Assembly (NCBI RefSeq): GCF_053078305.1
Contig: NZ_CP166879.1
Length of the DNA: 64,000 nucleotides
Reading direction: 5' to 3' (one strand)
The stretch's first letter is position 1. Every line of letters starts with the position of its first letter. The notes beneath the pieces are model-generated. The model was not told the DNA's origin and did not search any database. It saw only the letters and a program-made list of their open reading frames with translations. Positions 9,762 through 11,030 of this stretch are shown here, piece by piece. The position numbers and the translations under genes are program-made.

Positions 9762-11030
9762 AAAAAATCGCCGCGCTATACCCACCAGACTCATTCCTGC
9801 CCAGCCTACAGGACTCAGGTTACCGTAAAGAATGACCGCCAATATTGCCAGTCCACCCCATTGCAAAAAAGTATCAGGCCGGTAAAACGAAGACTTTTTA
9901 CGCGGCAGATAAAATTTCTGCATCCGTAAAAATGCCCTGCGTAAGACTCTGTTGCGTCTCCCCGTAAGAACGACCTTATCGCCTTTACGAAATAACGCTT
10001 CCAGTAATAACTGCTCTGCGGGCAGTAATACCTCATTATTTCTGGTCGCGCCTTCATTAACACGAATCAGGATTTGCTGGTTCTTATCATACTGATCTTC
10101 CAGATGAATTTTTCCTTTCACAATCAGATTTACGATATCGGCACAAAACCCTTTATCGTCGTAAACCAGCTTCGCATCGAGACGTAACATGCCGGGCGTG
10201 TAATCTGGCGGAATGACATCGGTTTCAATCACATCTACCGGCGTAAATTGCGGCCTGCGCTTCCAGAGATATAACCATCCACAAACCAGGAATAGACACG
10301 GAAACCAAATTAACAACGATGACGTGGAGGGTAAAAGAAGATGGCTGAAAATATTCGTCGTTTGTGGAGCCGGGGCATTGCTAAGTAACGAGTGAGGCCA
10401 ACGGTAGAGGACCGTGAAATCTTCACGATAAAACGGATCGCTGGATTCAATTCTTCCGTCCTCAAGGATGCGGCCATTTCGATATGTGTCGCCCTCTTCT
10501 CCAGTAAAGAGATCGATTTCGCTAAATGGATTACCCGCGATATCAGGGAACTTGAGTGAAAATCGGGTCTTATAGATTTCAAACGGCCAGTGGTTACCAG
10601 TCACGTTCCAGATTAACAGATCTGAATCTCCCTCACGCAGGAAAGCATTTTTAACCTGATAATGAATTTGATAATGATAGTCGCCTTGGGGCAAGAAACG
10701 TTGTTTATCGCCCACGACAATACTCATTAACCCGATATGCCAGTCAAGATGCCAGGGTTCAGGAATACCATCACGGGTTACGCCAACAATATGATAGTTC
10801 AGCAGTGCTGCGTCCCCATCAGGCTGCATCCAGAGTCGTGGTAAATCACGATAAAATCCGTGCTTAATCTGCTGATTTCGCGCCTGAAAATGAATGTTCT
10901 CTTTGATGTCGAGCACCCCATCCGGTTGCAGAGTGGCTTCAGAAGGGATCTCCGTGTTTTCTGCATAACTTAGAGATGATACAAACAGCCCTGCTATCAA
11001 CAGCAAAATGCAGCGAAACTTCCCTGCCAT
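9762..11030 (-). pseudogene. yciQ: yciQ (DUF2207 membrane protein), 3'-truncated at the prophage junction
   Basis: 423 codons with signal peptide and TM segments; recalled E. coli YciQ is about 631 aa; stop codon supplied by the terminal TCA of the inserted DNA. Confidence 0.55.

Follow-up and report, generated by a model that had tools for sequence, protein, structure and literature searches.

The window analysed here, a stretch of 64,000 nucleotides of contig NZ_CP166879.1 (assembly GCF_053078305.1), starts inside a Mu-like prophage and continues into the E. coli chromosome. The right-hand 9.8 kb of the prophage, recognised by Pfam matches and by blastn comparison with the prophage of STEC1587, occupies positions 1..9780 (plus strand). 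It is followed by a 5' fragment of yciQ at 9781..11030 (minus strand) and by yciO at 11058..11714 (minus strand). Positions 10941-59066 are colinear with the ordinary E. coli chromosome, at 98.9-99.5% identity to TUM13936, the closest complete genome (locus L009). The IS4 copy that TUM13936 has beside adhE is absent from the window (around 39161-39172), and the tyrT/tyrV-rtT repeat region (around 45943-46221) differs between the two.

The yciQ fragment and its locus

The six-frame list of open reading frames contains a frame of 423 codons on the minus strand (9759..11030 with the stop codon), the product of which begins with MAGKFRC and ends with MSLVGIARRFF. Over positions 9781-10900 (1,120 nt) its DNA shares 99.9% identity with the yciQ gene of E. 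coli TUM13936 and 97.0% with that of K-12. The product contains the Pfam DUF2207 N-terminal domain (E = 6e-21, 75.8 bits, gathering cut-off 24.4). The second domain of the family, DUF2207_C, scores 26.1 bits, which is below the Pfam cut-off of 33, and is matched only to position 130 of the 247 positions of the profile, while full-length K-12 YciQ scores 41.3 bits; the sub-threshold score is as expected for a truncated member of the family. The neighbouring genes are yciO, rnm (trpH) and trpLEDCBA, in the same order as in K-12 and TUM13936. Upstream of yciQ, on the same strand, lie yciO, whose assignment by Pfam (Sua5_yciO_yrdC, E = 1.5e-51) and by the RefSeq annotation of matching regions confirms the chromosomal locus, and rnm/trpH, followed by the divergent trp operon. 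A scan for promoters and terminators around the reading frame found no promoter-like site and a single terminator-like site, a number to be expected by chance.

The reading frame is the 5' part of yciQ, far beyond chance. An earlier note on this DNA had named the gene as yciQ, and the DNA identity, the DUF2207 match and the trp-rnm-yciO-yciQ order bear this out; the note gave positions 9762-11030, which is the same 423-codon frame without the stop codon, and left the strand (minus) unstated. Its figure of about 631 residues for the E. coli protein was accurate, since K-12 yciQ is 1,896 nt long and encodes 631 aa. The homologous part of the fragment, 9781..11030, covers K-12 nucleotides 1-1280 except for 30 bp, that is residues 1-30 and 41-427. 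Alignment to reference YciQ places the missing C-terminal part at residues 428-631 (204 aa, 32% of the protein), in agreement with the estimate in the note that about the last third is absent.

According to the hydropathy profile, K-12 YciQ consists of a signal peptide and membrane segments at residues about 245-267, 403-422, 428-448 and 458-480. The break falls between the second and the third of these segments, inside the DUF2207_C domain, and the fragment retains the signal peptide, the DUF2207 N-terminal domain, the first membrane segment, the soluble region following it and the second membrane segment. With K-12 yciQ (b1268) the window copy thus shares the position downstream of trp-rnm-yciO, the start codon, the signal peptide, the N-terminal domain and the first two membrane segments; it differs in the absence of residues 428-631 and 31-40 and in the gain of six C-terminal residues encoded by the phage.

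The loss of residues 31-40 is a second lesion of the gene. The alignment revealed an in-frame deletion of 30 bp between positions 10940 and 10941 (minus strand), removing K-12 codons 31-40 (YEEGISLFDV), and these 30 bp are present in K-12, TUM13936 and O157:H7. The deletion closely follows the signal peptide and falls where the DUF2207 N-terminal domain begins; the Pfam match starts at profile position 7 in the window copy, as against position 2 without the deletion. In intact yciQ alleles the site is a palindrome whose 13-bp arms are separated by a 3-nt spacer, and the deletion takes one of the arms. None of 5,426 complete E. coli genomes matched a 50-bp probe that spans the deletion joint and whose design keeps undeleted alleles from seeding a match, which makes the deletion private to this lineage. 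The 3' truncation, the only lesion described in the earlier note, is real, but the fragment is not otherwise whole. Taking into account the 30-bp deletion and a six-codon tail in phage DNA, the 423 codons comprise 417 codons of YciQ and six encoded by the phage.

The prophage right end and its junction with yciQ

Pfam searches of the prophage part of the window identified genes for GP46, Baseplate_J and Mu Gp48 proteins, a tail fibre with its assembly gene, a Gin-type invertase (4604-5164, plus strand), a cargo gene, com (8716-8961, plus strand; Zn_ribbon_Com, E = 3e-12) and mom (8915-9652, plus strand; Mom, E = 3e-77). The com and mom genes are hallmark right-end genes of Mu-type phages. In blastn comparison with the complete 39-kb prophage of STEC1587 (locus L003), positions 2-3522 of the window correspond to 31778-35298, and positions 7392-9780 correspond to its right end (39221-41609) with 99% identity. 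On the coordinates of this prophage, about 29 kb separate the phage left end from position 1 of the window. The STEC1587 prophage encodes a Mu transposase, an AAA (MuB-like) ATPase, Gam and Mor, and the complete relatives that have a 99%-identical right end encode both a MuA-type transposase and a MuB-type ATPase. The right terminus, com and mom, the Gin invertase and the baseplate and tail genes are shared with Sp18, the Mu-like prophage of O157:H7 Sakai, and with relatives of it such as PhiFRIK804-3 and the Mu-like insert in the Stx phage LC727881. The element in the window is an Sp18-type Mu-like transposable prophage.

Some parts of the element are more variable. The tail-fibre and DUF6645 segments of the window are just 87-92% identical to STEC1587 or cannot be aligned with it. 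No alignment with the STEC1587 prophage was obtained for 3523-4388, in the tail-fibre and invertible region, and for 5953-7391, the 3' part of the cargo gene, which points to mosaic host-range and cargo modules. The cargo gene (5255-7312, plus strand, 685 aa) is situated between the Gin invertase and com/mom, and encodes both a SASA (sialate O-acetylesterase-type) domain and DUF6645, while the similar gene of the relatives is annotated with DUF6645 alone.

The right terminus of the prophage (9699..9780, plus strand) ends with ...ATCGCCGCGCTATA. A repeat search in these last 82 bases found three direct copies of a 16-nt motif (GTATCAAA..GC) at 9699, 9734 and 9756, together spanning 9699-9771. 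The motif core TTTGATAC is present in inverted orientation at the left ends of related prophages, and the three copies are probably transposase-binding sites.

In global alignment to K-12 and TUM13936, yciQ homology ends between positions 9780 and 9781, while the references continue: ...ATATCG precedes CCCACCAG... in the references, and ...CGCTATA precedes CCCACCAG... in the window. The right (com/mom) end of the prophage terminates with position 9780, so that 9781 abuts the terminal phage base, and the earlier reading of the break as a prophage junction is correct. That reading also had the frame stop at the junction; it in fact extends about 20-22 nt beyond the break into phage DNA, where direct reading of 9759..9780 (minus strand) gives the six codons IARRFF followed by TGA (9759-9761). 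Base 9780 serves as the third base of the Gly427 codon, which is GGT in the window and GGC in K-12, and this residue is kept at the junction by chance. The prophage copies in STEC1587, 20R2R and LC727881 terminate with the same 22 bases; the prophage of 2013C-3252 has the same 22-base end, save that an A-run is one base longer further in.

A search with the terminal 481 bases of the phage found them at 280 places in 231 of the 5,426 complete E. coli genomes, always with the same last base, and with 99.4-99.8% identity among the best 30 of the 231 genomes. Genes adjoining the terminus at these places include paaA, phnM, creC, terB, dprA and irp1, among others. An alternative phage end at ...CCCA, corresponding to a Mu-like terminal CA, was considered and rejected, since all other copies of the phage diverge right after ...CTATA. 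What sets the window apart from these Sp18 relatives is the target: yciQ is the target in none of the 231 phage-carrying genomes. A junction query requiring at least 80% coverage likewise found the phage end joined to yciQ in 0 of the 5,426 genomes, and an exact-pattern search for the observed right junction gave no match in the GTDB representative genomes.

Target choice and the missing part of yciQ

Four related insertions were examined at both ends, namely those in paaA of STEC1587, in phnM of 20R2R, in creC of 2013C-3252 and in the Stx2c phage LC727881. In all four the two halves of the target gene flank the prophage and are contiguous in the target; paaA, phnM and creC are each annotated as two halves around the prophage. 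The insertions are accompanied by 4-bp target duplications, which are GTGA, TCCT, TATG and CATC in paaA, phnM, creC and LC727881, respectively, the last having been annotated by the depositors of that sequence. The loci compared for termini and duplications were L003 2574-41609, L008 2782-42079, L010 2850-42136, L006 and L007 (LC727881) and window positions 9777-9784. Phage Mu itself makes a 5-bp target duplication and has TG...CA termini. For the Sp18-type family a Mu-like 5-bp duplication was rejected, because 4 bp is the only length that agrees with the four insertions for which both ends were read. The termini of the family were observed to be 5'-T(G/A)TAACC...GCGCTATA-3' rather than TG...CA.

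Target choice by the Sp18-type phage is non-specific. Since the phage is transposable, yciQ is a random target and not an attachment site. Sp18-type prophages have been described as Mu-like, packaged, not circularised, competent for transposition and located at strain-specific sites, and Sp18 disrupts sorM in strain Sakai (PMC7430833, PMC2669165).

The right flank, starting with CCCA at the junction, is the sole flank of the prophage within the window, and blastn with K-12 yciK-cobO-rluB and the 3' part of yciQ as queries found no 3' part of yciQ, rluB or cobO there. Because the four relatives carry both halves of the target on the two sides of the prophage, the 3' part of yciQ is likely to be found beyond the other prophage end, where the earlier note had expected it. 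Its 620 nt would then adjoin the phage left end, about 29 kb to the left of the window, with CCCA as the duplication. A simple insertion would place there ...AAACATATCGCCCA joined to T(G/A)TAACCAGGTG...; the expected order is rluB, yciQ from nucleotide 1896 to 1277 (window plus strand ...GATCATAATAAACATATCGCCCA) and then T(G/A)TAACCAGGTGAATCATTTGATAC..., with CCCA on both flanks. A search of the GTDB representative genomes with this predicted left junction as a gapped exact pattern gave no match.

A different outcome of the same kind of event must be weighed, in which a Mu-type rearrangement took place with or after the insertion (deletion of adjacent DNA, inversion or a product of replicative transposition) and the 3' third of yciQ now lies elsewhere or is lost. 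Mu-type phages are known to cause adjacent deletions and inversions, and the presence of one prophage end alone in the window, with yciQ 3' part, rluB and cobO all missing from it, is what such an event could leave. However, the four related insertions are all simple, with contiguous flanks and a 4-bp duplication, and the chromosomal part of the window, right of the junction, is colinear with a normal E. coli chromosome; a rearrangement is therefore considered unlikely.

It is much less probable still that the reading frame represents a naturally short YciQ variant or an assembly artefact at the junction. An artefact would agree with the finding that both the junction and the 30-bp deletion occur in none of the 5,426 genomes, and that the 423-aa protein has no record in the exact-protein index. 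A version of the protein with the ten residues restored has no record there either. Against an artefact, the break coincides with the very last base of the phage, just as it does at the other insertion sites, which a misassembly would seldom achieve, and the deletion preserves the frame and lies at a palindrome, where a natural deletion may plausibly arise. As for a short variant, the case that the earlier note had itself named as contrary, a natural YciQ of about 423 aa ending with GIARRFF, does not hold: yciQ continues past this point in 3,650 genomes, and the IARRFF tail is phage DNA, its codons forming the phage terminus that stands beside unrelated genes in 231 genomes.

Site-specific, lambdoid-style integration with yciQ as the attachment site can practically be dismissed: many prophages of E. 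coli lie within genes, and the earlier note, in speaking of the other prophage end, had read the break as an ordinary prophage junction, but the complete relatives encode a Mu-type transposase, the phage end occurs at many unrelated sites and in yciQ in 0 of 5,426 genomes, and the insertions share no attachment core, only 4-bp duplications that differ from site to site.

Disruption of yciQ and its probable consequences

With the gene, the exact junction, the phage and the uniqueness of both lesions among the 5,426 genomes established, the state of the locus is very probably explained by transposition of an Sp18-type phage into yciQ after nucleotide 1280 together with an independent 30-bp deletion, the likely result being a null allele. 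The phage would have transposed into CCCA (window plus strand), that is nucleotides 1277-1280 of the gene, within codon 427, splitting yciQ inside the cluster of its C-terminal membrane helices. The 5' part, still behind its native operon, would be read six codons into the phage right end up to the stop. The 423-aa product, if made, would have the first membrane segment, the soluble middle part and the second membrane segment, and would be devoid of the third and fourth membrane segments and of the C-terminal soluble Gly-rich part. Its periplasmic domain would itself be damaged by the independent in-frame deletion at the palindrome, which removes residues 31-40. The earlier account of the locus is sound in outline and incomplete with regard to the transposable mechanism, the deletion, the phage-encoded tail and the dispensability of the gene.

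Judging from the sequence, the truncation by the phage combined with the loss of residues 31-40 makes a null allele the most likely outcome. It is possible that the truncated YciQ is partly functional, its native start and operon context being retained. The left junction, built from the 4-bp duplication and the left terminus of the family, is predicted to read ...GGTTAC-ATG-GGC-GAT-ATG...: with the left terminus (...GGTTACA on the yciQ strand) followed by the duplicated TGGG, residues 427-631 (MGDMFIM...) would be preceded by an in-frame ATG. The repressor gene at the phage left end is transcribed leftward, in the same direction as yciQ. In view of the predicted ATG and the repressor gene of the same direction, there is a slight chance that the split gene is not simply dead and yields two polypeptides. 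The chance is similarly slight that the recurrent, independent damage to yciQ in E. coli reflects selection against it, as a surface target for instance, rather than neutrality. The predicted 206-aa C-terminal reading frame has no record in the exact-protein index.

Disruption of yciQ by the transposable phage and the deletion adds to a series of lesions found in this gene. Among the 5,426 complete E. coli genomes, any match to yciQ is present in 3,976, at least 80% of the segment is present in 3,650, and the gene is missing from 1,450 (27%). In W2-5 (L004 3901-4000, compared with L002 2175-4307) yciQ is absent and rluB is 100 bp from yciO; an unrelated spacer of about 65 bp between the two genes indicates that the absence is not a simple clean deletion. 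BL21 carries IS1 inside yciQ, the gene is frameshifted in TUM13936, the closest relative, and in O157:H7 strains an in-frame deletion of about 0.3 kb inside the gene shortens the product to 527 aa. In all these cases, as in the window, an accessory gene has been damaged or lost and the flanking genes show no visible effect. The mechanism is unlike those of the other lesions, being here the insertion of a transposable phage and a palindrome-associated deletion of 30 bp. A pan-genome study lists yciQ among the genes not present in all strains (PMC12595684), and the gene has been used as a neutral integration locus in metabolic engineering (PMC11943725). Hence yciQ is a dispensable, often-lost accessory gene, from which we infer that its loss is of little cost.

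For annotation, the 423-codon reading frame should be labelled a pseudogene fragment, its tail being encoded by the phage, and not a short DUF2207 protein, and the right boundary of the prophage is fixed at position 9780. The junction and the 30-bp deletion, both found in none of the 5,426 complete genomes, can be used as markers of the lineage. Biologically the event is an ordinary one, a known kind of gene disruption by a transposable prophage that affects an accessory gene of unknown function, and it is of little importance.
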